From: an uncultured Candidatus Saccharibacteria bacterium
Lineage (GTDB): Bacteria > Patescibacteriota > Minisyncoccia > Portnoybacterales > UBA2143
NCBI GenBank assembly: GCA_964472495.1
Contig: CAYYLD010000002.1
Location: forward strand, 27,949-91,948
Length of the DNA: 64,000 bases
Direction of reading: 5' to 3'
Positions 45,140 through 64,000 of the stretch are shown one piece after another. How positions within the stretch are numbered: the first letter of the stretch is position 1; each line of letters starts with the position of its first letter. The position numbers were made by a program, and so were the translations under genes. The notes under the pieces were generated by a model. That model did not search any database. It was not told the DNA's origin and worked only from the letters and a program-made list of their open reading frames with translations.

Positions 45140-45219
45140 ATTTGCTTAATCAAACAGCGAACAACAAACAGCGAACAATAGAAATTGTTCACTGATAGCT
45201 ATCCTCTGTTCTATAAACT

Positions 45220-45248
45220 ATTCTAATCCCGAATCTCTCTATTGTCAA
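45220..45248 (-). promoter_or_regulatory. Sigma70-like promoter of groES-groEL, TTGACA-N17-TAGAAT. A GAACAA-repeat leader lies at 45152-45189.
   Basis: Minus-strand hexamers read directly from the sequence. The 5'UTR carries two direct AACAGCGAACAA repeats and a GAACAAT-agaa-ATTGTTC palindrome. Confidence 0.45.
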
Positions 45249-53785: not shown

Positions 53786-53817
53786 CAAAAAAGCCCTGCT
53801 GGCAGCTTGTCAGCAGG
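53786..53817 (-). terminator. Terminator hairpin CCTGCTG-N9-CAGCAGG followed by a T-run on the minus strand
   Basis: Seen in the sequence downstream of the 53863 gene. Confidence 0.4.
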
Positions 53818-53862
53818 ACATATTTTAGATAAATAGTTAGTTCGTGGGCATTTCGGAAGCAT

Positions 53863-54600
53863 CTAGTCGAAATACATTGCCAATCTGGCAACTAGGAAGC
53901 TGCCTGGTTCCAGAAGAATCCCCTCTGGGGTATTGAAGTCATCTGGATGAGACAAAAGTGGCTCGACGCAGACATATCCCGACTTCCAATCCGTCCATAT
54001 ACATATCTGACCGTCCTCAAACCCTTGAAATGGACACATTCTAACCTTTCCGACACCGAATAAATTGATTTCAATCTCACTACTGGCCTCAAATATCTCG
54101 GAACCGTATGGCCGGTCGACATAGATAGGTTCAATACCCTGACCAAGGAAAATAATTTCTGCTCCTTCAGGAGCAGAAAAGTACGGATGCCAAGCGAACT
54201 CGAAAGGAACTGGAGTGGCCAGTCTGTTCTCAACGCTGACAGTTATCCCCAGAGAATTCTTATCCAAAAGGTAGCTGACTTTGTAATCCAATTGGTAGCC
54301 GAACTGCCTGAACTCACAAATATACTCAACGTCAGTCAGCCGTTCCGCAACATCAACAAGCTGCCAATAAACATCTCTCAATCCACCATGCTGAGGAATG
54401 GTAGCAAATCGACCATTCTTCTTTTTGCCGAAAATTGGTGAGCAGAGATGCATCCCTCCCCGGACTAAATCCTTACCCCCTTCTCCTTTGATAACTTGCT
54501 GCGGAAAGAAAAAATCCTTTCCGTCTTTCTCTAAGTTGGTGATTCTCGCGCCCATAGCCAGGGTTTCTATACTTAATATTTCATTATAAGAGTACAACAT
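53863..54600 (-). CDS. Aldose-1-epimerase-like (galactose mutarotase-like) domain protein
   Basis: GGMHLCSPIFG...IPQHGGLRD...W pattern resembling YeaD/hexose-6-P 1-epimerase. RBS AAGGAGGGCC. Confidence 0.5.
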   Translation of the reverse strand: MLYSYNEILSIETLAMGARITNLEKDGKDFFFPQQVIKGEGGKDLVRGGMHLCSPIFGKKKNGRFATIPQHGGLRDVYWQLVDVAERLTDVEYICEFRQFGYQLDYKVSYLLDKNSLGITVSVENRLATPVPFEFAWHPYFSAPEGAEIIFLGQGIEPIYVDRPYGSEIFEASSEIEINLFGVGKVRMCPFQGFEDGQICIWTDWKSGYVCVEPLLSHPDDFNTPEGILLEPGSFLVARLAMYFD

Positions 54601-54665
54601 ATGGCCCTCCTTACATTTCTTGAATTGGCATTAATTGTTAGTGAACAAATTTCTAAACTAAAACA

Positions 54666-54694
54666 AGCGTACCACAGAAATATGTTTATGTCAA
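54666..54694 (-). promoter_or_regulatory. Conserved-module promoter ATTGACA-N17-TACGCT
   Basis: Member of a seven-copy promoter family in the 54.6-62.7 kb interval. Confidence 0.45.
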
Positions 54695-54713
54695 TCCTTT
54701 CGACAGACTAGTT

Positions 54714-55418
54714 CTACAAATCTATCTCAATTTCTGGCTTATCTTTGTTAAGCAAGTCAGTGGTTGCTTTGGCCTGACATTGTTCAGTCAGCAAATTAGC
54801 CAATTCATCTCTGGCTCGTTCAATAAGCGATGATGGAGCTGGATCAATGCCGTCAAGATTAATGACAATTTTTTTAGTTTCTTCGGTAAGCTTGGTAAAA
54901 TCCCCGTTGCGCCAGTTCCATTTTCGGCACATCACATTCAAGGTTTTATCGTCAAAGTAAATTACTTCGTTGGGCTCGGGATTTTCCTTATCTTGAGTGC
55001 CTAAAGGAATAAATATCTCATTGCCCTTAGCCAGACTGAGCCGCAGATTGCCTTCTATCTTTTCAACATCATCACCGCCGCAGGGGAGCAGATATTTGAT
55101 GGAGATATAATTGAATAAAGCGACTACCGAGTTTATAAAAGGCAGACCGCCGCCCTTGGCAATTCTCGCCAGTAGCGATTTAATGGAAGGCAAAAATTGA
55201 TTTGGATTAGAGCCGAATTTCAAATGGACCTCATCCCAGGCTTTGACTAATTCATGCTCCACTAAATTTTGACCCATTTTTTCTTCTATTTCTTTGTTCA
55301 AGAGCTTCTTAATTCTTTTATTGCCTGGAGCGTTGACTATCTCGCTGACGATAATAATCCCTCGGTTAAAGCTGGGAAATTGATTAAAAATTTCCTGGTC
55401 AATAATAATTTTTCTCAT
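54714..55418 (-). CDS. B3/4 domain protein (PheT B3/B4-like, stand-alone)
   Basis: LLPCGGDD...GNEIFIPLG...EVIYFDDKTLNVMCRKWNWRNGD fits B3_4 family signatures. Confidence 0.5.
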   Translation of the reverse strand: MRKIIIDQEIFNQFPSFNRGIIIVSEIVNAPGNKRIKKLLNKEIEEKMGQNLVEHELVKAWDEVHLKFGSNPNQFLPSIKSLLARIAKGGGLPFINSVVALFNYISIKYLLPCGGDDVEKIEGNLRLSLAKGNEIFIPLGTQDKENPEPNEVIYFDDKTLNVMCRKWNWRNGDFTKLTEETKKIVINLDGIDPAPSSLIERARDELANLLTEQCQAKATTDLLNKDKPEIEIDL

Positions 55419-55428
55419 TGTCTTAATT

Positions 55429-55767
55429 TCAACAAGTTAAATGCAGAGCGGCTATAACTTTTTTCCGGTCAGCCAGCTGATTGTAAATCTCAACTGCTTT
55501 GGCGGTTGGCTCGGCCATCAACTCAATCCCCTCTTGAGCCAAATATTCCTTGGTTTCTTCCATCACCTCAACCAATCCGGAGTCACCGGTGCCAATAACC
55601 AAAACAGCCGGCTTTTCCTTAACCGCTTCTTTAATATCTTCCGGGTAAACTTTATGGCCTTCCCGGCGCCACCACTTTTCCAGCCGCTCTGGATAAATAA
55701 TCACGTCGTGCCGATATTCCTTCCCCTCAACCTTAATTTGCCCAAATTGATAACCATCTATCCGCAT
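55429..55767 (-). CDS. Mth938-like domain protein
   Basis: FGQIKVEGKEYRHDVIIYP...KPAVLVIGTGDSG...TAKAVEIYNQLADRKKVIAALHLTC. Confidence 0.65.
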   Translation of the reverse strand: MRIDGYQFGQIKVEGKEYRHDVIIYPERLEKWWRREGHKVYPEDIKEAVKEKPAVLVIGTGDSGLVEVMEETKEYLAQEGIELMAEPTAKAVEIYNQLADRKKVIAALHLTC

Positions 55768-55783
55768 ACCATTCTATTGTATC

Positions 55784-55809
55784 AAAAAACCGCCTCTTTG
55801 GCGATTTTT
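55784..55809 (-). terminator. Conserved terminator hairpin module (AAAAATCGCC-loop-GGCGGTTTTTT on the minus strand), copy 1 of 9
   Basis: Near-identical sequence recurs at 56633, 58759, 59503, 60125, 60773, 62695 and 63507. A fully paired stem with a G-U pair forms only on the minus-strand RNA. Confidence 0.55.
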
Positions 55810-55891
55810 GAAATATAAATAATTTATCTTTAAAAAAATAAGGGCCAGATTTTTTGTGTCTAACCCTCTCCGTTCTTAAGAAAGCCTTGTT

Positions 55892-56113
55892 TTAAAAGCA
55901 ATCAGGGCAATAAAATTTGCCTTCTCTTTCCCTAAGGTGTTTGTTTAGGGTGACCCGCTTGCATCCGGTACATCGTTTACCGTCCTCTCCTAACAAAACA
56001 GCTACATCATCTCTTATCCCATCCTGAGGACCCCATGGATTGGATTTGTCAGGAAAAGGCTCATTCGGCGTCGGTTGTCTAGTCCCAAAGCCCATAATCA
56101 TCCCTCCTTTCAT
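55892..56113 (-). CDS. Small zinc-ribbon protein, 73 aa
   Basis: CTGC...CPDC pattern. RBS GAAAGGAGGGATGATT. Confidence 0.45.
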   Translation of the reverse strand: MKGGMIMGFGTRQPTPNEPFPDKSNPWGPQDGIRDDVAVLLGEDGKRCTGCKRVTLNKHLREREGKFYCPDCF

Positions 56114-56147
56114 TAATAAAGTTTACCTGATTAAGTACGATTTTCTC

Positions 56148-56474
56148 TTAACTGCCACCGGGCCGGCGTGATTTGTCCATTTGGCGCGCCTTTTCAGCTA
56201 TCTCTACTATCAGCTTGGCTGCTTCTTTCGAGCTAATCCGTTTTCTCTCAACTTCCCTGATTAGAAGAATTGCCTCTTCGTAAAAAGACAGTAAAGTCGT
56301 GATGAAAACCAGAATATCAATATCTGTCTTCAGAACCTCAATCGCCTTTGCTTTAGCGATTTCTGCCTTTTCATCGACCTCGGCTACCATCAGGGTCTCT
56401 ATATAGGCCTGGATAAAATCGATCAGTTTTTGCTTAGCTTCAGGGCTAAGCGATTTTGAATATAGTTCAGTCAT
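56148..56474 (-). CDS. Hypothetical protein, 108 aa
   Basis: RBS GAAAGGAGGAAGGA. Operonic with 55892-56113. Confidence 0.45.
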   Translation of the reverse strand: MTELYSKSLSPEAKQKLIDFIQAYIETLMVAEVDEKAEIAKAKAIEVLKTDIDILVFITTLLSFYEEAILLIREVERKRISSKEAAKLIVEIAEKARQMDKSRRPGGS

Positions 56475-56580
56475 TCCTTCCTCCTTTCGTCAAGACGAAC
56501 ACGATACTTATACTTTTATTATTATTTTAAGGTACATTTCCTTTCCTTCAGACAAATTTTAATTTCAGCCAATTAAAAAA

Positions 56581-56608
56581 AGCATACCACAGAGCACACT
56601 TTTGTCAA
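56581..56608 (-). promoter_or_regulatory. Conserved-module promoter ATTGACA-N16-TATGCT
   Basis: Family member. A degenerate terminator hairpin lies just upstream at 56633-56654. Confidence 0.45.
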
Positions 56609-56727
56609 TGATTGAATTGTATTTTCACTCTGCCAAAAAACCGCCTCAGGCACGAAATTCTTAAGATTTTTTATTTTCCCAAATTTTTGGCTGCGCTGGT
56701 AATTCGAAATTAGGCATCGTATTTTTA

Positions 56728-57483
56728 TCAACCAGTCTTCTCACCAATCAACTTCCTATATTCACAATACTCGCAATTCTGGCCGGCGGCCGGAATTTGC
56801 TCGGAATCCAGGCACTTTTTAATTTCCAAAAGAGTCGGTTCAATCCATCTATCATCTCCCTGATGAGGAATAATCATTAATTCGAACTCCAGCCGGCCGT
56901 CAAATTGAGGCCGGTTTTTCCCGGCATTGGCAAAAACAAAATAGCCGGTCGGCGAAACCTTAAAACCCTTTTTCCGGAAAATCCATTGATAAATTTCCAT
57001 CTGTTGTTTATAACTCTGTTTGTATTCATCCTCTAGGGATATCTCCTTGCTGGTGCTGGTTGCTTTATAGTCAACAATCAAAAGTTCCTTGTCTTTATTA
57101 ATCCAAACATCATCAATAATGCCGCAAATTTCCAGATTAGTTGGCTGGTCTAAAACACAAGCCCCGACATATTGATAAACATCATCCCGCCAAATAGGCA
57201 AATCCGGATGTTTAAAGGGTACCGCGTCAATCTTGTATTTCTTCATCAGCTCATGGGCCTCGCCATTCTTGCGCAATAAATCAAATTCATTCTTCAAAAG
57301 CTGGTCCACAGCCGAGTTCAAAGGCCAGCCAGGCATACTCGGCCGGCTCAGACCGATTCTTCTGTCTATATAAAAACAGCGGGGACACTCTAAAAACATG
57401 CTAATCTTTGACCGACTAATCCTAAAAGGATTCTTTGCCCCCGGCTGATAAAGATTATTTTCTCTCTGTCGGTATTTGTTCAT
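56728..57483 (-). CDS. PD-(D/E)XK nuclease family protein, Cas4-like with four Cys
   Basis: LLIVDYKATS motif, N-terminal CPRC and C-terminal CEYCEY. Confidence 0.5.
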   Translation of the reverse strand: MNKYRQRENNLYQPGAKNPFRISRSKISMFLECPRCFYIDRRIGLSRPSMPGWPLNSAVDQLLKNEFDLLRKNGEAHELMKKYKIDAVPFKHPDLPIWRDDVYQYVGACVLDQPTNLEICGIIDDVWINKDKELLIVDYKATSTSKEISLEDEYKQSYKQQMEIYQWIFRKKGFKVSPTGYFVFANAGKNRPQFDGRLEFELMIIPHQGDDRWIEPTLLEIKKCLDSEQIPAAGQNCEYCEYRKLIGEKTG

Positions 57484-57531
57484 AATTTTTTAGTTCTATT
57501 TACTATTCCGGCTCGCCGGCTCGCCCTAAAA

Positions 57532-57873
57532 TTATAACCAGATAATTAAAAAACCGGCCAGGCCAATAACTATATCCCAAATTTTATCAAGGGTCGACTC
57601 TCTTCTGAAAAGATAGTTGGAAATAGCCAGTTCGAAAAACTCATAAGCTATTAATATGACTAGAACTAGCAACCAGGCGTAGTCAACAAAAATACAATGG
57701 GAGAAAACAAACCCCAAAATCAATCCGGAAGTAAAATGGACAAAGCTCCATCTATCCAGATAAAAATACTTTTTCTGACAGATGATTTTAGCCATCCATC
57801 TTTGCAGCCGATTGGAAAATACTGGTCTTTCACCCATGTTTGCTATTATATCAGAAAACCGCCGCTCGGCCAA
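57532..57873 (-). CDS. Hypothetical membrane protein, 113 aa
   Basis: Two to three TM segments. TGATATAAT lies 7 nt upstream of the ATG, so the transcript looks leaderless. Confidence 0.45.
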   Translation of the reverse strand: MAERRFSDIIANMGERPVFSNRLQRWMAKIICQKKYFYLDRWSFVHFTSGLILGFVFSHCIFVDYAWLLVLVILIAYEFFELAISNYLFRRESTLDKIWDIVIGLAGFLIIWL

Positions 57874-57983
57874 AGATTAATCAGTGGTTTTTAGCATATA
57901 AAAAAGGAGTCGCTAAAGAAAATAGCAACCCCATTGTTCGGCCTTAAACCATAGCCAATACCTCCGATGAATATCGTGAGCAG

Positions 57984-58235
57984 TCACTGCTCTAAATGTT
58001 TCTCTACTATCTTCTTTATCTTTGGCAGCTTATCGTCCCAGAAATTCCAATTGTTACCAGATTCGGTGACGATTGATATCTCTCTGAATGAACCGGGCTC
58101 CGTAGAGAAACATATAACCCCTTCAATACTCTTATCTATCTCTTCTATTATCTCAGCCGCCATCTGAACAGGCACCTCTTCGTTAAAAATAACCTTTGCC
58201 CTGTCGAGGACAACACTATAATTTCCTTCTGACAT
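57984..58235 (-). CDS. Hypothetical acidic protein, 83 aa
   Basis: RBS AAAAAGGAGGGAATAAAA. Confidence 0.45.
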   Translation of the reverse strand: MSEGNYSVVLDRAKVIFNEEVPVQMAAEIIEEIDKSIEGVICFSTEPGSFREISIVTESGNNWNFWDDKLPKIKKIVEKHLEQ

Positions 58236-58319
58236 TTTTATTCCCTCCTTTTTTTATTTTTTTTCTGTCCTTTTTTAGAACCAAAAAATGTTAGCGAACT
58301 GAATTTATCAATTAAAATA

Positions 58320-58348
58320 AGCATGCCATAGAAGCATGCTCGTGTCAA
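58320..58348 (-). promoter_or_regulatory. Conserved-module promoter ATTGACA-N17-CATGCT, followed by a conserved 5'UTR
   Basis: The UTR block GTTAGCGAACTGAATTTAT at 58291-58309 is shared with 59400-59418. Confidence 0.45.
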
Positions 58349-58404
58349 TATCTCGTTGGGACATTCACTAGTGATTCCATTTTCTGTAAAACCTACTTAT
58401 ACTT

Positions 58405-58746
58405 TTATTTTAATCTAAAAACAATCAAACCGAGTTTATCAATTTTTTCCCTATAATCCGGAAAACTGAAATAAACTTTTTTCATCTGCTCAATTGAATC
58501 AACAAAAGGCATAATCTTTTTAAAATCAATCGTCTTGGTCATTTCTTCAATCGTTTTATAGTATTCAACCTTTTTCACCTTTTTCTCCAATTTTTCATTA
58601 CCGCAGACAAAAACCAAAATATCACCCTCTTTTATTTTACGGTACGCATTTATGGCTGCCCGGCTCTCAATTGTTTTCCGCCCTTCCTTGATTGCCCCAA
58701 AAAAAACCTTATCCACCTGCCTTATTTTTAAACTATGCTTTTTCAT
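58405..58746 (-). CDS. ASCH (PUA-like) domain protein
   Basis: KVFFGAIKEGRKTIESR...EGDILVF...VEYYKTIEEM pattern. Confidence 0.6.
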   Translation of the reverse strand: MKKHSLKIRQVDKVFFGAIKEGRKTIESRAAINAYRKIKEGDILVFVCGNEKLEKKVKKVEYYKTIEEMTKTIDFKKIMPFVDSIEQMKKVYFSFPDYREKIDKLGLIVFRLK

Positions 58747-58758
58747 TATTCTATCTTA

Positions 58759-58786
58759 CCAAAAAACCGCCCCTTTGGCGATTTCT
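58759..58786 (-). terminator. Conserved terminator hairpin module
   Basis: GAAATCGCCAAAGGGGCGGTTTTTTGG on the minus strand. It is followed by TAAGATAGAATA immediately before the ATG. Confidence 0.55.
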
Positions 58787-58885
58787 TTTAAAAAAAGGAG
58801 CTTATTTGTTAAATTAAAAAGCAGGGACATTGTCTAATATCCCCGCTAACAAATCTTCGGTCAATGACGGCAAGTGCTATGGTTA

Positions 58886-59368
58886 TCATAAGTGAGTTCT
58901 CATAATCTTCAGCCAACCCTTAATGTTCCTCCAAATCTCTCTTTCGGTGAGTAATGCGAATTGTTTTAAGCTATCAAGATGCCATTTTCTCAATTCCCTC
59001 TCTGTAACAAGACGGTAATCACTATCACTTCGGTTTGCCGGATAATCAGCATCGATCCAATCATAAAGAGAAATCCTGTCCCCTATTTTTCTTAAAACCA
59101 AACTACCTACATTATCACGCCGGTGAGGCTGAGGATAAAGGGCGTTGAATTTATCAAGAACCATTATTGCCCTACCAGAATCATTGAGAAAAGAGAGTAT
59201 CGGTTCAGTATTTGCAACTTTATTGAGAAGTTCAAGATTTCTTACTGCCATAGAAAATAGCTCTACTGGGAAATAAGTCGGTTCTTTCTCAACCCTTTTC
59301 CTTATTTTCTTCCCTTGCCGTAGCAAAAGGATCTCTCTTTGAATATCTTCCGGTATTTTTATTGTCAT
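58886..59368 (-). CDS. Hypothetical protein, 160 aa
   Basis: RBS AAAAGGAGAGTGCC. Confidence 0.45.
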   Translation of the reverse strand: MTIKIPEDIQREILLLRQGKKIRKRVEKEPTYFPVELFSMAVRNLELLNKVANTEPILSFLNDSGRAIMVLDKFNALYPQPHRRDNVGSLVLRKIGDRISLYDWIDADYPANRSDSDYRLVTERELRKWHLDSLKQFALLTEREIWRNIKGWLKIMRTHL

Positions 59369-59431
59369 GGCACTCTCCTTTTTAAATTACTATTTAAATT
59401 GTTAGCGAACTGAATTTATTAATTTAAAATA

Positions 59432-59460
59432 AACATACCATGAAAGTACGCTTGCGTCAA
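59432..59460 (-). promoter_or_regulatory. Conserved-module promoter ATTGACG-N17-TATGTT
   Basis: Family member, with the shared 5'UTR block. Confidence 0.45.
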
Positions 59461-59502
59461 TTTCTTATTCTGTCTAAAAAAACTGCCTATCCCGTCAAGA
59501 TT

Positions 59503-59537
59503 CACCAAAAAAACCGCCCTTTTGGCGATTTTTTTAT
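59503..59537 (-). terminator. Conserved terminator hairpin module
   Basis: AAAAAAATCGCCAAAAGGGCGGTTTTTTTGG on the minus strand. Confidence 0.55.
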
Positions 59538-59554
59538 AAACACTCAACTTTACT

Positions 59555-60100
59555 CTACGGCTCATAATTCTTAATAAATAGAGTTGGTCCTCGCCAGTAC
59601 TCCAATTTTGTCCGGCCTTGCCTTTCTTTCCAATATCCTGGAAATGATTTGCCTTGTTTAAAAGGAGCAATACAGATAGCCAAATGGAGATGGGCATCTT
59701 CCCACCAACCATTTTCTTGTGTCCAAGCCGGAGCTATTATCCCGATTCTTTGACCTAATTCTACTTTAGTCCCTTTCTTAACCAATCTCTTGCCCAGATG
59801 CCCATAAAGAGAAAAGAATACATTTCTTGTTTTGGGGTCTTTATGAGCAATAATAATGATGTTGCCCCAATTACGATGACCACCCTGTTTAGGACTTTTT
59901 TTGCTGGCATAAAGAGCAGAATAAACTACTTTTCCCCTGCCTATGGATTTAACTATAGTTCCGGCTTTAATATTACAATCTTCGCCCAAATGCAATCCCC
60001 AATCTATTCCATCATAAATACATCTTTCCTTAAATTTATAACTGTTCACTTCCCATTTCTTAAATGGAAAATCTAGTTTAGGAGTATAGAGATAAGCCAT
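59555..60100 (-). CDS. M23 family metallopeptidase (LytM domain)
   Basis: HLGED (HxxxD) and AHLHLAI (HxH) motifs. The 59419-59712 ORF that overlaps it is spurious. Confidence 0.7.
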   Translation of the reverse strand: MAYLYTPKLDFPFKKWEVNSYKFKERCIYDGIDWGLHLGEDCNIKAGTIVKSIGRGKVVYSALYASKKSPKQGGHRNWGNIIIIAHKDPKTRNVFFSLYGHLGKRLVKKGTKVELGQRIGIIAPAWTQENGWWEDAHLHLAICIAPFKQGKSFPGYWKERQGRTKLEYWRGPTLFIKNYEP

Positions 60101-60124
60101 ATCACTATTCTACCCCCTCAAATT

Positions 60125-60154
60125 ATTCAGAGCAAGCAAAAAACCGCCCAAAAG
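60125..60154 (-). terminator. Conserved terminator hairpin module
   Basis: AAAAAATCGCCTTTTGGGCGGTTTTTTG on the minus strand. TAGAAT sits 6 nt before the ATG of the 59555 gene. Confidence 0.55.
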
Positions 60155-60265
60155 GCGATTTTTTATCCAGTTCCCCGAAAAATTATCAAGAACACATCTT
60201 TATCAAATTCTAAATAATAGAAAGACCGTGGCGTATAATCACCACGGCCTCAGTCAACCACGTCT

Positions 60266-60718
60266 TCATTTGAAGGATATAGGGTCAACTTCAATAAGCT
60301 TTTTTAGGTCGCCCTCGAATATGGGAAGGTCACGAGACCAAAAATGACTTCTGAATCCAGCCATTTTCCTTACAAAAAGATGATCTCTTTCAACACGCAA
60401 TCCAGAAACACCAATGGCCCCTAGGAATTGCCGTTGACAATCAGGATATCTGCCCATTTTCCAGTATATCCTTGATCCCCCCTTAATTCTTCCACCGTCC
60501 AGCGCCCGCTTGGCCCTGGCGTACGATTTTTTTAAAGAGCCACCTCTATGCTCCGCAAGATTGTTTCCGTTTTTGACAATAACCACATTAGATTCCCTGC
60601 CTAGGACAACAACAAAAGGGTCGATATCTACGTTTAATTCCGACCAAATACAGTTTATCTTGCCAAAAACCAACCGCAATTGCATCTCATCCATACTATC
60701 CACCTCCCTTATAATCAT
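60266..60718 (-). CDS. Hypothetical protein, 150 aa
   Basis: RBS AAGGGAGGTGGATAGT. Confidence 0.45.
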   Translation of the reverse strand: MIIREVDSMDEMQLRLVFGKINCIWSELNVDIDPFVVVLGRESNVVIVKNGNNLAEHRGGSLKKSYARAKRALDGGRIKGGSRIYWKMGRYPDCQRQFLGAIGVSGLRVERDHLFVRKMAGFRSHFWSRDLPIFEGDLKKLIEVDPISFK

Positions 60719-60733
60719 TTTGTACTAAAAACA

Positions 60734-60762
60734 AGTATACCATTAAAATATACTTATGTCAA
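60734..60762 (-). promoter_or_regulatory. Conserved-module promoter ATTGACA-N17-TATACT
   Basis: Best match to the sigma70 consensus in the family. Confidence 0.5.
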
Positions 60763-60772
60763 TATTCCATCT

Positions 60773-60804
60773 TATCAAAAAACCGCCCCCCTGGCGATTT
60801 TATT
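60773..60804. terminator. Conserved terminator hairpin module. It also serves the plus-strand methyltransferase region.
   Basis: AAAAAACCGCCCCCCTGGCGATTTTATT on the plus strand. Confidence 0.5.
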
Positions 60805-60861
60805 CAAAAACAAAAGTTCGACTAAATAAAATAAAAATGGTAAAATAAACTGAAAAATTAT

Positions 60862-61485
60862 ATGAGATCTAGTTACAGATTAAAGCCTAATACTACTTTA
60901 GAAAAATTTCTGCCTTTAATTCCAAAAGGTAGAGCTCTTGATATTGGAGCCGGCCAAGGAAGAAATAGCATCTTTTTAGCTAAAAATGGATTTGAGGTAG
61001 AAGCGATTGATCTTATTCCGGAAGGATTAAAAAAATGCCAGGATTTTGCCAAGAAGCACAACTTGGCCATTAAAACAAAAGCTATTGATGTAAGGAAATT
61101 TAAGTTTAAAGAAAATTATTATTCTTTAATTATGGCTAGGGCCGTCTTGGATTTCCTCAAAAAATCAGAGATAGGGACAATCATAGGAAAGATTAGGAAA
61201 TCTCTTGTCCCAGATGGCTTTATTTACTCCTTGGTCTTTTCAACCAAGGACCCGCTCTATTTAAAAATCAAGGGAAAAGGAATCAAAGAAATTGAAGAAA
61301 ATACCTTTTATCTGCCAAAATTTAAAACTTATCGTCACTTTTCTACTAAAACAGAATTAAAAGAAGCAATCAGGAACTTCAAGATTATTTATCTAAATCA
61401 GCGACCAATGAAGGACTATCACGATAAACCGCATTATCACGATATCATAGAGGTAGTCGCTCAAAAGAAAAAGACAACGGAATAA
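60862..61485 (+). CDS. Class I SAM-dependent methyltransferase (TehB-like)
   Basis: ALDIGAGQGRNSIFLAKNGFEVEAIDL. It is the only plus-strand gene in this array. Terminator ACAACGG-N6-CCGTTG + T6 at 61486-61500. Confidence 0.7.
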   Translation: MRSSYRLKPNTTLEKFLPLIPKGRALDIGAGQGRNSIFLAKNGFEVEAIDLIPEGLKKCQDFAKKHNLAIKTKAIDVRKFKFKENYYSLIMARAVLDFLKKSEIGTIIGKIRKSLVPDGFIYSLVFSTKDPLYLKIKGKGIKEIEENTFYLPKFKTYRHFSTKTELKEAIRNFKIIYLNQRPMKDYHDKPHYHDIIEVVAQKKKTTE

Positions 61486-61498
61486 CCCGTTGCCTTTT

Positions 61499-61747
61499 TT
61501 AACCAGAAAGATTGTACCAACATTGAGGGTCATGACTAAAGAAAGAACCAGAAAAACCATAAGCTACAGCTCCACATCCCCGATAAGTGTAAAGCAAAGG
61601 ACATCTTTTGCATTTTTCATATTGGTTTAGATCTCTATATTCATTTAGCTTTTCAGAATCTATAAATAAATCTATTAGTTTTTGTTCTGGTACTTTCCCT
61701 ATCAAGCTAGAGAAACGACGACAAGCATAAACACTTCCGTCAGTCAC
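61499..61747 (-). pseudogene. C-terminal SPASM/twitch-domain fragment of a radical SAM enzyme (truncated remnant)
   Basis: PC...CKRCPLLYTYRGCGAVAY...HDPQCWY matches the SPASM CxxCx5CxxGC...DPxC motif. An ~82-aa ORF is present with no radical SAM core upstream; only 285 bp lie before the next gene. Confidence 0.5.
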
Positions 61748-62032
61748 CGACTGAGACGATTTTCGAACTTATCTTATAAAAAAAGAAATATATTTTCATT
61801 CCCGCAAGATGATAAAAGGGTCATCCCTTGCATAAGATAACCCTTTGTTAATTTAGGCCACAGACTTTACGAATTGACATCTAGTTCCCTTACTCTTATC
61901 CAACCACCGACATCGTCCGGATTCATTTCCAAAAAATCTTCGTTGCTTATAATATTACCGGTCTGTTTTCGTATCAAGCTTTCTCAAGATGTAATTTCAT
62001 CCCGACGATTAGGCATAGGTAAGCCCCTTTAT

Positions 62033-62596
62033 CTATTTTCCGATGACACGATTAATTGCATAAGAACCATCTAAGTTAGTTTCCACTCTGTATCCCGCTT
62101 CATCCCCTTCGCCTTCAGCAATCGCCGGGGGAAAATTTGGAATAAATCCATGAATCCATAGGCCGTGTTTTCGGCTGATTCTTTCTAAATCCGCCGCGAA
62201 AGCAAGCATTCTGGACTTTAGAGTTTTTTTTCCCCAATGCAGATCCGGCCATATGGCCTGGGCTTTTCTTGAGATAGAATCAATATCTACTTCGCTAACA
62301 GACCCGGCAGTCATAAGATCTTTCTCATTAATCTGTTGGACTTTATAGGGGGGTAAAATACCAAACGGTTTTCCAAGTTCGCCTTCGGTCACCGGACCTC
62401 TCGCATCCCAATACATTCCATCAGAGCCAATAAGAACGGCGTGAGAGATTACATCCCCCTCCATCAAACCGATTATTGGCCAATTCAATCCTCGAGAAAG
62501 CGCGATAGCAAAGGTATAGCATTGACATCGTCCTTCTACCAAGAAGCGAAGTTCCTCGCGATCTTCTGGCTTTAATCTTTTAAACTCTATTGTCAT
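62033..62596 (-). CDS. Hypothetical protein, 187 aa
   Basis: RBS AAGAAGGAGGATACC. Confidence 0.45.
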   Translation of the reverse strand: MTIEFKRLKPEDREELRFLVEGRCQCYTFAIALSRGLNWPIIGLMEGDVISHAVLIGSDGMYWDARGPVTEGELGKPFGILPPYKVQQINEKDLMTAGSVSEVDIDSISRKAQAIWPDLHWGKKTLKSRMLAFAADLERISRKHGLWIHGFIPNFPPAIAEGEGDEAGYRVETNLDGSYAINRVIGK

Positions 62597-62648
62597 GGTA
62601 TCCTCCTTCTTATTTTTAGTTTCTATAACAATCTTAAGAACTAAAAAA

Positions 62649-62677
62649 AGAATGACACACCAATATTATTCTGTCAA
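62649..62677 (-). promoter_or_regulatory. Conserved-module promoter ATTGACA-N17-CATTCT
   Basis: Family member. Confidence 0.4.
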
Positions 62678-62694
62678 TGACATTATCCATTCTA

Positions 62695-62724
62695 CCAAAA
62701 AACCGCCCAAAAGGCGATTTTTTA
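62695..62724 (-). terminator. Conserved terminator hairpin module
   Basis: AAAAAATCGCCTTTTGGGCGGTTTTTTGG on the minus strand, followed by TAGAATGG. Confidence 0.55.
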
Positions 62725-62788
62725 TCTTTCTTATACATTTAAATCCTAACTAATCTCTCCAGCCAAAAAAGACGCTCGTTTTTCCTTT

Positions 62789-63496
62789 TCATCTCATCGC
62801 TTTTTTCTTCAAAGGCGCGGGCATTTTTTCGATGGCGTAACGCAAGGCCGTCCGCGGCATCTCATCTTTCCTTTTTATTACAAAATCAAAAACTTCCTTT
62901 TGAAAATTATTACTTGCCTCTTTAAGCATCCAACCATAACCTTTTTGAACCAAATCCTCTTTATCCTTCAAAAGAATTTCGGCAATTTTAAGGACAGGGA
63001 TCAATTCTTTTCTATTTTTCACAGAATAGATCAAGGACACGGCCGCCGCCCGACGCAGCCATAAATTCTTTGATTTGGCCCATTTTTCCGTTTTTTTTAC
63101 AAAACGCGGAAAATAATATAGGAAATACCCTAAAGCGTGAGTGCATAAATTATCACAAGAGTCCCATGAATCAACATATTTTCTGAGCCAGTTTTCAAAT
63201 ACTTTAAAATCTTCGGCCGCGTATTTTTTCCGCAGACGGAAAGCCCAGTCAAAAGAAATTTCCGTCCCGCCGATAATTTTAGCTTGAAGAAGCTCGTCGC
63301 ACAAACCAAAAATCTCTTTTTTTCCCAGCGTTTTTATTTCGTTAAAATATTTTGAAGAAATTTTCTTCAGGACAGGACTGGCAATGCCAAGGTGAACTTT
63401 TTTGTCTTTATAGAATCTGGAATAATCTTTACAGATGGCCGGATCCTTAACCAATCGGCCTAATTCTTTTCTCAACTGTTTAACGACTTCTTTCAT
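62789..63496 (-). CDS. DNA alkylation repair protein (AlkD/AlkC-like HEAT-repeat DNA glycosylase family)
   Basis: NLWLRRAAAVSLIYSV...DLVQKGYGWMLKEASNNF pattern of the DNA_alkylation family. TGATAGAAT lies 6 nt before the ATG. Confidence 0.6.
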   Translation of the reverse strand: MKEVVKQLRKELGRLVKDPAICKDYSRFYKDKKVHLGIASPVLKKISSKYFNEIKTLGKKEIFGLCDELLQAKIIGGTEISFDWAFRLRKKYAAEDFKVFENWLRKYVDSWDSCDNLCTHALGYFLYYFPRFVKKTEKWAKSKNLWLRRAAAVSLIYSVKNRKELIPVLKIAEILLKDKEDLVQKGYGWMLKEASNNFQKEVFDFVIKRKDEMPRTALRYAIEKMPAPLKKKAMR

Positions 63497-63506
63497 ACTT
63501 TTATTC

Positions 63507-63533
63507 TATCAAAAAACCGCCCCCTTGGCGATT
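63507..63533 (-). terminator. Conserved terminator hairpin module
   Basis: TAATCGCCAAGGGGGCGGTTTTTTGATAGAAT on the minus strand. Confidence 0.55.
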
Positions 63534-63537
63534 AAAT

Positions 63538-64000
63538 CTACTTTTCTTTTTTGTGTAGTGTTTTTTCAAAACTAAATAAAAATTTATCTAAATCGCTTTT
63601 TAAAATTTTACTCATTTTTTGTTCGATTTGTTTATCACGATTTGTTCTACGGATACTTAATATATCCATTATCGCCTGTTTACCCTTTAATTCAATAATA
63701 TATTTCACTATTAAGTATGATATCTTATATCCCTCATGTTCAGCTACGTTAAGCCAGGGTATCGTGGGATTAATAAGTATTTTGTTTTCCTTAAACCACT
63801 CCCAGTCTTCCTTTTTGACTATATTATTATAAACATTCTCTCCTTCTACATACTGACAAACTCCTTCGTTCGCCCAAGCAAAACATCTTTTATTAATCTG
63901 ACTTACAAATGCATGGGCAGTTTCGTGAATAATAGTTGGTAAAATTTCATGTTTTTTATGAGTTGTAAGTTTTTCAAAAACCAACGGACTGAAAATATAT
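63538..64000 (-). CDS. HExxH-motif hypothetical protein (putative small metallopeptidase-like). The N-terminus lies beyond the window end.
   Basis: IIHETAHAF motif. The frame stays open to position 64000. The ORF-track start is a TTG. Confidence 0.4.
   Translation of the reverse strand, partial: YIFSPLVFEKLTTHKKHEILPTIIHETAHAFVSQINKRCFAWANEGVCQYVEGENVYNNIVKKEDWEWFKENKILINPTIPWLNVAEHEGYKISYLIVKYIIELKGKQAIMDILSIRRTNRDKQIEQKMSKILKSDLDKFLFSFEKTLHKKEK

Follow-up and report, generated by a model that had tools for sequence, protein, structure and literature searches.

Judging from its sequence, the element that we describe here has its closest known analogue in the promoter-early stem-loops (PeSLs) of T4-like phages. 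These combine a sigma-70-like promoter with a stem-loop that lies between the -35 box and the -10 box or overlaps them, and their promoter and terminator activity, as well as excised mini-circles, have been shown experimentally (Arbiol et al., 2010, PMC2839356; Comeau et al., 2014, PMC4122927). Phages also carry 'morons', promoter-gene-terminator units found between other genes (PMC2839356). Our locus belongs to a stretch of 64,000 nucleotides (the window hereafter) of contig CAYYLD010000002.1, from an uncultured Candidatus Saccharibacteria bacterium. There, a 10-kb array of small genes is punctuated by a composite element of ~35 bp: the T-run of a hairpin continues, in every copy, as TTTTTTG-(G/A)-TA-n-AAT, an extended -10 promoter motif. 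We lean, with fair though not full confidence, towards the view that these genes are self-expressing cassettes bounded by a rigid composite of terminator, promoter and leaderless start, and that this composite is a crossover point for short-homology recombination. What would be new is a PeSL-like composite in a cellular genome, apparently conserved across a phylum.

Other modular or repetitive arrangements must be kept in mind. Integron cassettes are mostly promoterless and co-oriented; their attC sites span 57-141 bp, with R''/L''/L'/R' boxes and the GTTRRRY motif, and an intI gene with attI and Pc stands at one end of the array. Repetitive extragenic palindromes and their mosaics (REP/BIME), the DNA uptake sequence (DUS) of Neisseria and Correia-type repeats are species- or family-specific, and they number in the hundreds to thousands, frequently as inverted pairs. 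A DNA uptake sequence, in particular, is found thousands of times genome-wide, about once per kb, core regions included.

The window is bacterial chromosome, not phage. Its genes include those for DnaK, DnaJ, a class II aminoacyl-tRNA synthetase, Mur ligases, CTP synthase, DnaG, GroEL, two tRNAs and a primary sigma-70 factor, full-length with regions 1.1-4 (RpoD). Compared with translated loci of metagenome-assembled genomes (MAGs) labelled Paceibacterota, Parcubacteria or Patescibacteria, identity is 70-76% for this RpoD and 56-57% for DnaG, which makes the organism very probably a member of the candidate phyla radiation. G+C content drops from ~0.40-0.44 to 0.36-0.37 over 58-64 kb. The array would represent the 10 kb, within the window, of a ~16-kb hyperplastic accessory-gene island in a Patescibacteria chromosome (Paceibacteria/Parcubacteria-type), its genes mostly forming what appear to be autonomous expression cassettes. 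A phage origin was considered and rejected: 50,697 phage records searched by megablast contained no match to the 10-kb region, and scans of the region with PHROG and PADLOC returned only generic matches (Cas4-like, M23 endolysin-like, mad2-like methyltransferase), with no coherent phage or defence system among them. At its gathering threshold Rfam detected nothing but tRNAs; at E <= 1 the array gave nothing beyond chance-level matches, and there was no match on the flanks of element copies from other genomes of the candidate phyla radiation (CPR).

Seven exact hairpins, AAAAATCGCC-N5-GGCGGTTTTTT, lie on the minus strand within 55.7-63.5 kb (cores at 55787, 58764, 59511, 60141, 60780, 62700 and 63514), for a chance expectation of 0.02 with the search pattern ATCGCC-N3-8-GGCGGTTT. 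With up to three mismatches the same seven loci alone are recovered from the whole 64 kb (0.13 expected), and no copy appears in the remaining 54 kb, which hold the DnaK, GroEL, Mur, DnaG and RpoD region. Two further copies, at 57863-57855 and 56645-56637, retain the right arm only, GGCGGTTTT, and neither folds. All nine are co-oriented on the minus strand. An earlier, sequence-only reading of the window had also counted nine, as eight full copies and a partial one: the total stands, the split does not. It had rightly seen that the full copies share a strand-specific mismatch, T facing G in 7/7 of them: minus-strand RNA pairs the two as U.G, and the plus strand has C x A, a mismatch, at that place. 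The folding energy of the 26-nt hairpin ranges from -8.6 to -17.6 kcal/mol in minus-strand RNA, and from -5.7 to -11.7 kcal/mol for three copies folded as the plus strand. That the motif is more than the generic terminator of the species was also correctly anticipated: terminator-like sites elsewhere in the window are diverse, and we rejected the generic-terminator reading because their stems are unrelated, often longer, and because the three-mismatch search gave no further copy.

What that first reading overlooked is that the hairpin is physically fused with an extended -10 promoter motif and a predicted leaderless start. Its left arm, TCGCCA, is placed 17 bp upstream of the -10 and was flagged, with TG, as a -35-like hexamer by a consensus scan; the hairpin occupies approximately -36 to -22 of the predicted promoter. 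Two architectures are superimposed in the same DNA. One is that of an intrinsic terminator, a G+C-rich stem-loop followed at once by a U-tract, 3' of a co-oriented gene. The other is that of an extended -10 with leaderless start, TGnTAnAAT with a start codon 6-8 nt further on and no Shine-Dalgarno room. This ATG spacing and the absent room for a Shine-Dalgarno site imply that the mRNA downstream of E1, E4, E6, E7 and P1 (Table 1) would be leaderless. E2 and E3 are arranged as tandem promoters, because a second promoter follows at once or overlaps. The would-be leaderless ATG of E2 (62688-62660) opens only a 5-codon mini-ORF (open reading frame), ATG TCA TTG ACA GAA TAA, which overlaps the -35 of the next promoter. 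In some cases a gene has, in front of the shared element, a further terminator-like hairpin of its own, as at 60251-60222 before E4.

The comparison of sibling contigs is what links the element to gain and loss of genes. Through exact-protein look-ups, many sediment metagenomes and one NCBI MAG yielded ~40 contigs that belong to this population. They fall into two lineages, W (the window plus L210-L219) and S (L131-L139); the two main haplotypes are each known from many independent assemblies, and they are present side by side in the same samples. W and S are 99.7-100% identical over window ~59.5-64.0 kb and ~0.6 kb beyond (~5 kb of the island). Identity is 97% in the PD-(D/E)XK gene, 94% in the B3_4 gene, 85% in the 101-aa (amino acid) gene and 86-88% in the flanking Band7/TspO genes (52.4-53.6 kb); beyond, on either side, the lineages are unalignable. 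This pattern suggests that diverged backbones have recently exchanged a segment of the island. Downstream of TspO the S lineage reads 302aa-GTPase-translin-Band7-LytB-PspC; upstream of the SNase 3' end W/S alignment is also lost (contigs compared: L131-L139, L001 and L004). Sibling contigs differ in whole modules and their gene order is not fixed, which bears out the cassette-like modular assembly that had been proposed from the window alone.

Four of these differences lie at the hairpin element. At junction B, the S lineage has a 1.57-kb DUF2178-HTH-S51 segment between the 142-aa gene and M23 that is absent in the window; there the loop of the left copy is joined to the downstream sequence of the right copy, which places the crossover within GGCGGTTTTTTG, and contig L210 reproduces the junction independently. 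At junction C, a 1.64-kb 160aa-ASCH-83aa block is present in W and absent from every S-lineage contig that spans the site; the crossover lies within GGCGGTTTT, and half-copy P1 was left behind. One S contig is without the S51 cassette only, lost between two identical 27-nt copies. At junction E, after the PD-(D/E)XK gene, the lineages share only a 19-nt island, GAGGCGGTTTTTTGGCAGA, which is half-copy P2, and both its flanks are replaced. In all, 4/4 crossovers (B, C, S51 and E) fall inside GGCGGTTTT(TTG), the right arm or the T-run, with a homology length of 9-27 nt. In siblings, 80/98-aa and PF1765-like genes take the place of the 55892..56474 stretch. Other boundaries are of a different kind. 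On the far side of B3_4, type-B promoter/UTR (untranslated region) modules enclose the replacement in both lineages, and homology resumes at 53798, past the aldose-1-epimerase-like gene. Junction A (L131 1-1111, L132; window ~60775) was tried as a further recombination event and discarded. It is an insertion next to E3: DNA with an IS1595-family (ISXO2-like) transposase gene starts 2 nt after the E3 T-run. In L131 and L132 this DNA replaces everything upstream of the junction point, and both contigs end inside the transposase gene, the far end of the insertion lying outside them.

Table 1. Coordinates of the composite elements, type-B promoters and genes of the array in the window (SD, Shine-Dalgarno site).
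Feature	Position	Strand	Remarks
E1	63502..63533	-	AATCGCC-AAGGG-GGCGG, T6, then GATAGAAT; AlkD-like ATG 6 nt after -10
E2	62688..62723	-	loop TTTTG, GGTAGAAT
E3	60768..60801	-	loop AGGGG, GATAAGAT; TTGACA promoter directly after
E4	60101..60164	-	loop TTTTG; long promoter variant GCTTGCTCTGAATAATTTGAGGGGGTAGAAT; M23 ATG 6 nt after -10; junction B crossover
E5	59498..59534	-	loop AAAAG, T7, GGTGAAT; left boundary of 1.64-kb window-specific block (junction C)
E6	58752..58784	-	loop AAAGG, GGTAAGAT; ASCH ATG 6 nt after -10
E7	55775..55809	-	loop AAAGA, GATACAAT; DUF498 (Mth938) ATG 8 nt after -10
Half-element P1	57844..57863	-	GGCGGTTTTCTGATATAAT, without left arm; 101-aa gene ATG 7 nt after -10; right boundary/scar of junction C
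Half-element P2	56625..56645	-	GAGGCGGTTTTTTGGCAGAGT; 19-nt homology island with sibling L002, flanks differ (junction E)
Type-B promoter	62648..62677	-	TTGACA-N17-CATTCT, weakest copy; AAGGAGG SD for 187-aa gene
Type-B promoter	60733..60762	-	TTGACA-N14-TGGTATACT; SD for 142-aa gene
Type-B promoter and 5'UTR block	59401..59460	-	TTGACG-N14-TGGTATGTT; ATAAATTCAGTTCGCTAAC at 59419-59401; 160-aa gene
Type-B promoter and identical 5'UTR block	58290..58348	-	TTGACA-N14-TGGCATGCT; block 58308-58290; 83-aa gene
Type-B promoter	56580..56608	-	TTGACA-N13-TGGTATGCT; upstream of 108-aa gene
Type-B promoter	54665..54694	-	TTGACA-N14-TGGTACGCT; diverged UTR box TTGTTCACTAAC; SD; aldose-epimerase-like gene
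HExxH / Peptidase_MA-like gene, 3' part	63538..64000	-	Pfam below cutoff; 244 aa in siblings, continues past window
AlkD-like DNA_alkylation repair gene	62789..63496	-	Pfam; predicted leaderless cassette between E1 and E2
187-aa gene	62033..62596	-	no family match
82-aa SPASM-domain fragment	61499..61747	-	Pfam
TehB-like S-adenosylmethionine methyltransferase	60862..61485	+	sole plus-strand gene of array
142-aa gene	60266..60694	-	weak HbpS-like match; own terminator-like hairpin 60251-60222
M23 peptidase	59555..60100	-	Pfam; predicted leaderless cassette between E4 and E5
Window-lineage-specific three-gene block	57867..59509	-	160 aa 58886-59368, ASCH 58405-58746, 83 aa 57984-58235
101-aa gene	57532..57837	-	predicted leaderless from P1; 85% identity with sibling allele
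PD-(D/E)XK / Cas4-like nuclease	56728..57483	-	Pfam
108-aa gene	56148-56474	-	within 55892..56474
73-aa ORF	55892-56113	-	CxxC pairs; no Pfam match
DUF498/Mth938 gene	55429-55767	-	Pfam
B3_4 gene	54714-55418	-	Pfam
Aldose-1-epimerase-like gene	53863..54600	-	Pfam; unrelated 130-aa gene here in siblings

The composite extends well beyond this population. The exact pattern AATCGCC-N5-GGCGGTTTTTTG, scanned through 596 Gb with one representative genome per species, turns up in at least 120 genome stretches, of which ~115 have the composite context, for some 4 expected by our own estimate from 19 fixed bases. Among the matches listed, nearly all stretches (>100 MAGs) are labelled Patescibacteria: Nealson-, Portnoy-, Staskawicz-, Wildermuth-, Vogel-, Buchanan-, Komeili- and Doudnabacteria, Paceibacterota and Minisyncoccales. 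In the same matches TAnnnT stands at the fixed offset in 121/145 copies, and in 57/121 of these an ATG exactly 6-8 nt after the -10 opens an ORF of at least 40 codons. The loop measures 5 nt in 157/157 copies that match a relaxed pattern and is free in sequence (79 distinct loops among 154), and a same-strand ORF ends no more than 200 nt upstream in 108/132 copies. At least eight copies stand directly after tRNA genes. Among the rare stem variants, 25 preserve the pairing, double compensatory changes included, and 11 disrupt it, and the wobble partner in the right arm is G rather than A in 25 versus 6 of the extra copies. Where a T-run meets an extended -10 in this fashion, this hairpin is essentially the sole flush one. 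Similar clusters bound one- to three-gene units in other MAGs (e.g. L060, L052, L128). The longer E4-type module (hairpin, GCTTGCCCTGAATTTATTGAAGGGGTAGAAT and leaderless ATG; window 60101-60164) closely resembles copies in the CPR MAGs L027, L044 and L045, few positions differing by eye. Elsewhere it precedes unrelated genes: a Nudix-like protein and ABC-transporter ATPases (labels from reading translations), and a small protein. An inner sub-motif of this module is tandemly duplicated in one L045 copy.

Because the composite is spread over more than 100 MAGs, nearly all labelled Patescibacteria, neither local duplication nor a generic terminator accounts for it. The proposal that a promoter-terminator unit had been duplicated within the array fails for the hairpin/-10 unit, whose identity between copies is not explained in this way; it survives for the TTGACA-promoter/5'UTR pair, and local duplication is shown solely there. 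Vertical linkage to AlkD was rejected as well: 80 metagenome loci with homologues of that gene (46-59% identity, 349 kb) contain only two elements, none beside the gene. Viral contigs were set aside too: a variable-loop scan of them gave 70 matches, generic terminators with loops of 3-9 nt and without the fused -10, save for L168, the one match with the CPR composite. We found no description of the element in the open-access literature, including that on leaderless genes, promoters and terminators in CPR.

Two kinds of non-coding sequence accompany the hairpin elsewhere. A T-arm-like minihelix, ...GCTCGGTTCGAGCGACCGAGCCGCA, precedes it in L015, L025, L095, L098, L109, L115, L124 and L130, directly after a tRNA-Asn or tRNA-Gln sequence in at least three loci, tRNA being the only Rfam family matched. 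A conserved non-coding motif of ~70-90 nt, ...CTAATTTCTCTCCAATCAATGGTTCTAAATGCGTCC..GGGGAGC.., lies directly upstream of it in different MAGs (two copies each in L032 and L088; also L072, L045, L071, L049 and L055). At this motif L088 has no ORF on either strand, and the motif loci scanned with Rfam gave no match. The motif may be an undescribed small RNA terminated by the element.

How far does the resemblance to PeSLs go? Both are small composite motifs in which a sigma-70-type promoter is joined to a terminator stem-loop, as far as the sequence tells in our case. Both are concentrated in hyperplastic regions of small non-essential ORFs (here 9/9 copies in 55.7-63.5 kb), bound the indels and replacements that separate near-identical genomes (here junctions B, C, S51 and E), and delimit cassettes with their own promoter and terminator. 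The replicon, by contrast, is a bacterial chromosome without a match in the phage collection; the start is a predicted leaderless ATG, whereas a Shine-Dalgarno site stands at the PeSL 3' end; the stem is TCGCC/GGCGG instead of G4/C4; one rigid geometry replaces five positional subclasses, and conservation extends over more than 100 MAGs of a bacterial phylum. Activity and mini-circles are experimental facts for PeSLs, while our element is known from sequence alone. Morons are also single genes inserted between others with promoter and terminator of their own, but their flanks are neither conserved in sequence nor thought to bring about mobility, whereas one conserved element marks the breakpoints here.

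The reading that we favour may be spelled out as follows. The first part of the element would be an intrinsic-terminator hairpin, AAAAAUCGCC-N5-GGCGG-U6, that ends the upstream transcript. The second would be a sigma-70 extended -10 (TTTG-n-TAnAAT) that starts inside the T-run, with TCGCCA as a weak -35 17 bp upstream. The third would be the ATG 6-8 nt after the -10, giving a leaderless downstream mRNA at four full copies and one remnant. Together they would make a 'stop-then-restart' transcription joint, which insulates each cassette and launches the next one, often leaderless. The fixed geometry and sequence would be most simply explained if a single DNA segment has to do two jobs, that of terminator (stem, U-tract) and that of promoter (-35, spacer, extended -10). 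Conservation of sequence and geometry across the phylum points to a constraint of this dual kind, terminator stem and promoter spacing being written in the same bases. The breakpoints lie at the composite; as for the mechanism, we infer that short-homology recombination would delete, insert or swap whole cassettes without breaking genes, the composite being the probable crossover point because it is essentially the only repeated sequence in the island.

Several facts weigh against this reading. One junction is an insertion sequence (IS) event and not recombination, hairpin-bounded events number only four, the S51 deletion is known from one contig, and the Band7 end of L002 could be an assembly chimera. 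Some lineage boundaries fall inside genes and not at elements. If indels that disrupt a gene are selected against, the breakpoints that survive would be driven to intergenic DNA in any case. TCGCCA agrees with TTGACA at 4/6 positions only, the hairpin of E1 is weak (-8.6 kcal/mol, z = -1.7), and E2, E3 and E5 have a second promoter downstream instead of a leaderless gene. The preference for G over A in the right arm is not obviously explained by dual coding. The scan demanded an exact stem, and the conservation statistics are partly ascertained because the search pattern fixed it; loop length, -10 offset, ATG spacing and position after genes are free of this selection. Finally, copy number per genome is apparently low: two complete ~0.64-Mb genomes have at least 3-4 exact copies apiece.

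Among the alternatives, the one that survives best, unlikely as we hold it to be, is that of ordinary regulatory signals: a terminator-plus-promoter favoured by Patescibacteria, with no special part in genome plasticity. Indel ends would coincide with it as the only microhomology available, selection removing the indels that cut genes. The presence of the unit after tRNA genes and in housekeeping contexts of other genomes is what this explanation would lead us to see, and it accommodates both the very short crossover homology and the lineage boundaries inside genes. It copes less well with four non-homologous cassette differences that all break in the same 9-12 nt of the element, with the restriction of the element, here, to the variable island (9 copies in 8 kb versus 0 in 54 kb), and with half-site scars, right arm without left arm, that recur here and in other MAGs.

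A site-specific recombination site (integron attC, Xer/dif or REP/RAYT-like, RAYT being the REP-associated tyrosine transposase) seems to us quite improbable. A recombinase would then read the imperfect palindrome, and the mismatch would set its polarity. Much in the locus has an integron flavour: small genes, mostly unrelated, stand in arrays of one orientation, the imperfect palindrome between them has a strand-specific mismatch, and cassette content differs between strains. The stem is invariant with a constant asymmetric T.G, the loop is fixed in length and variable in sequence, and the crossover always lies at the right arm or T-run. Yet no integrase, Xer or Y1 transposase is among the genes called within ~10 kb either side, and no intI is near the island, those genes being UvrD, XseA, Band7, TspO and similar; the sole mobile-element gene is the IS1595 DDE transposase of some siblings. 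The repeat is a 26-nt hairpin, GG|TTTTTT without a GTTRRRY box and without an Rfam match at E <= 1, and its 5-nt centre is short for tyrosine recombinases. Cassettes have their own predicted -10 or -35/-10 promoters, and the repeat is also found after tRNAs and single genes outside arrays; transcription, and not recombination, accounts for the rigid fusion of the hairpin to a -10 and a leaderless ATG and for its position after tRNAs. REP/BIME, DUS and Correia-type repeats are also short imperfect intergenic palindromes, repeated in a genome, that can terminate transcription or stabilise mRNA and can be hot spots of recombination, but they have no promoter at a fixed distance, whereas the present element is low-copy, co-oriented with genes, phylum-wide and absent from the 54 kb of core DNA. 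As to REP/RAYT, no Y1 transposase is present in the examined flanks, and all copies have one orientation.

That the dyad TCGCC-N5-GGCGG is the operator of a conserved dimeric regulator over the -35 and spacer, or a DNA-level signal such as an uptake sequence, and no RNA terminator, is very hard to believe. In favour of this view, the 5-bp spacing is fixed, the half-sites are invariant with a free centre, and the dyad overlaps -36 to -22 of the promoter. Against it, the dyad always has a U6 tract after it and an A-tract before it, and it lies just past same-strand stop codons or tRNA 3' ends; its variants tend to keep pairing, double compensatory changes included, and uptake sequences are as a class dense genome-wide where the 54 kb of core DNA here have no copy. 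The defining features of the integron, REP/RAYT, DUS and operator readings were tested, and all four fit worse.

A bolder extension of the cassette reading, which we hold to be doubtful, is that of a 'universal joint' across Patescibacteria, with the ~35 bp flanking self-expressing cassettes in many of them. Incoming DNA would recombine into any resident copy, through short homology or a hairpin-recognising recombinase, and be expressed at once. This would make the element a cellular, integrase-free counterpart of integrons or PeSLs, for exchange of accessory genes between divergent CPR lineages. Backbones 12-14% apart that share island segments at 99.7-100% hint at it, as does the 60-nt module variant found before unrelated genes in different MAGs. 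Natural competence has been reported for Patescibacteria. They account for a large part of bacterial diversity and can hardly be cultured, and we know of almost nothing established on their transcription signals. If shared across lineages, the element would offer a ready-made genetic part for the few tractable CPR systems and would serve as a marker when transcription units and leaderless genes are annotated across thousands of MAGs. It would then become testable whether reduced genomes trade accessory genes as pre-wired cassettes whose joints are conserved regulatory sequences, an exchange documented so far, to our knowledge, only for T4-like phages.

The remaining genes of the array use a second module, type B: TTGACA-N14-TGGTAnnnT, a 5'UTR of ~50-80 nt and AAGGAGG. 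The sequence-only reading had recognised the type, as ATTGACA-N17-TATGCT-like, and counted seven; there are six TTGACA-N14-TG(G)-TAnnnT sites (Table 1). It was also right that two of them share a 5'UTR block, 19 nt long and present as exact copies at two window sites only, and the module at 58290-58348 is a paralogous copy of that at 59401-59460. The block was rejected as a phylum-wide motif: besides the two exact copies we found only a diverged box at ~54650 and in L002. The TTGACA-N14-TGGTAnnnT spacer is often complementary to the extended -10 region (60762-60733, 58348-58319 and 59460-59431; also L099, L107 and L122), as in GAGCATGC...GCATGCTT and AGTATA...TATACT, a potential hairpin across the -10. 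Far from the array, a consensus promoter on the minus strand (45169-45248, TTGACA-17-TAGAAT) lies ~0.4 kb upstream of the GroEL ORF; after it come an inverted repeat, GTGAACAAT-N4-ATTGTTCGC, and a second TGTTCGCTG. The repeat has a GTTCGCT core similar to the GTTCGCTAAC box of the type-B 5'UTRs, and the two may represent a shared operator.

As for the genes themselves, the labels given at first reading were reproduced by Pfam except the zinc ribbon, a 73-aa ORF without Pfam match that has CxxC pairs only. The 82-aa SPASM ORF is likely to be a gene remnant. It is preceded by ~280 bp without a convincing gene (61499-62030), and it looks like what is left of a decayed radical-SAM/SPASM gene, in an ORF that all siblings retain.

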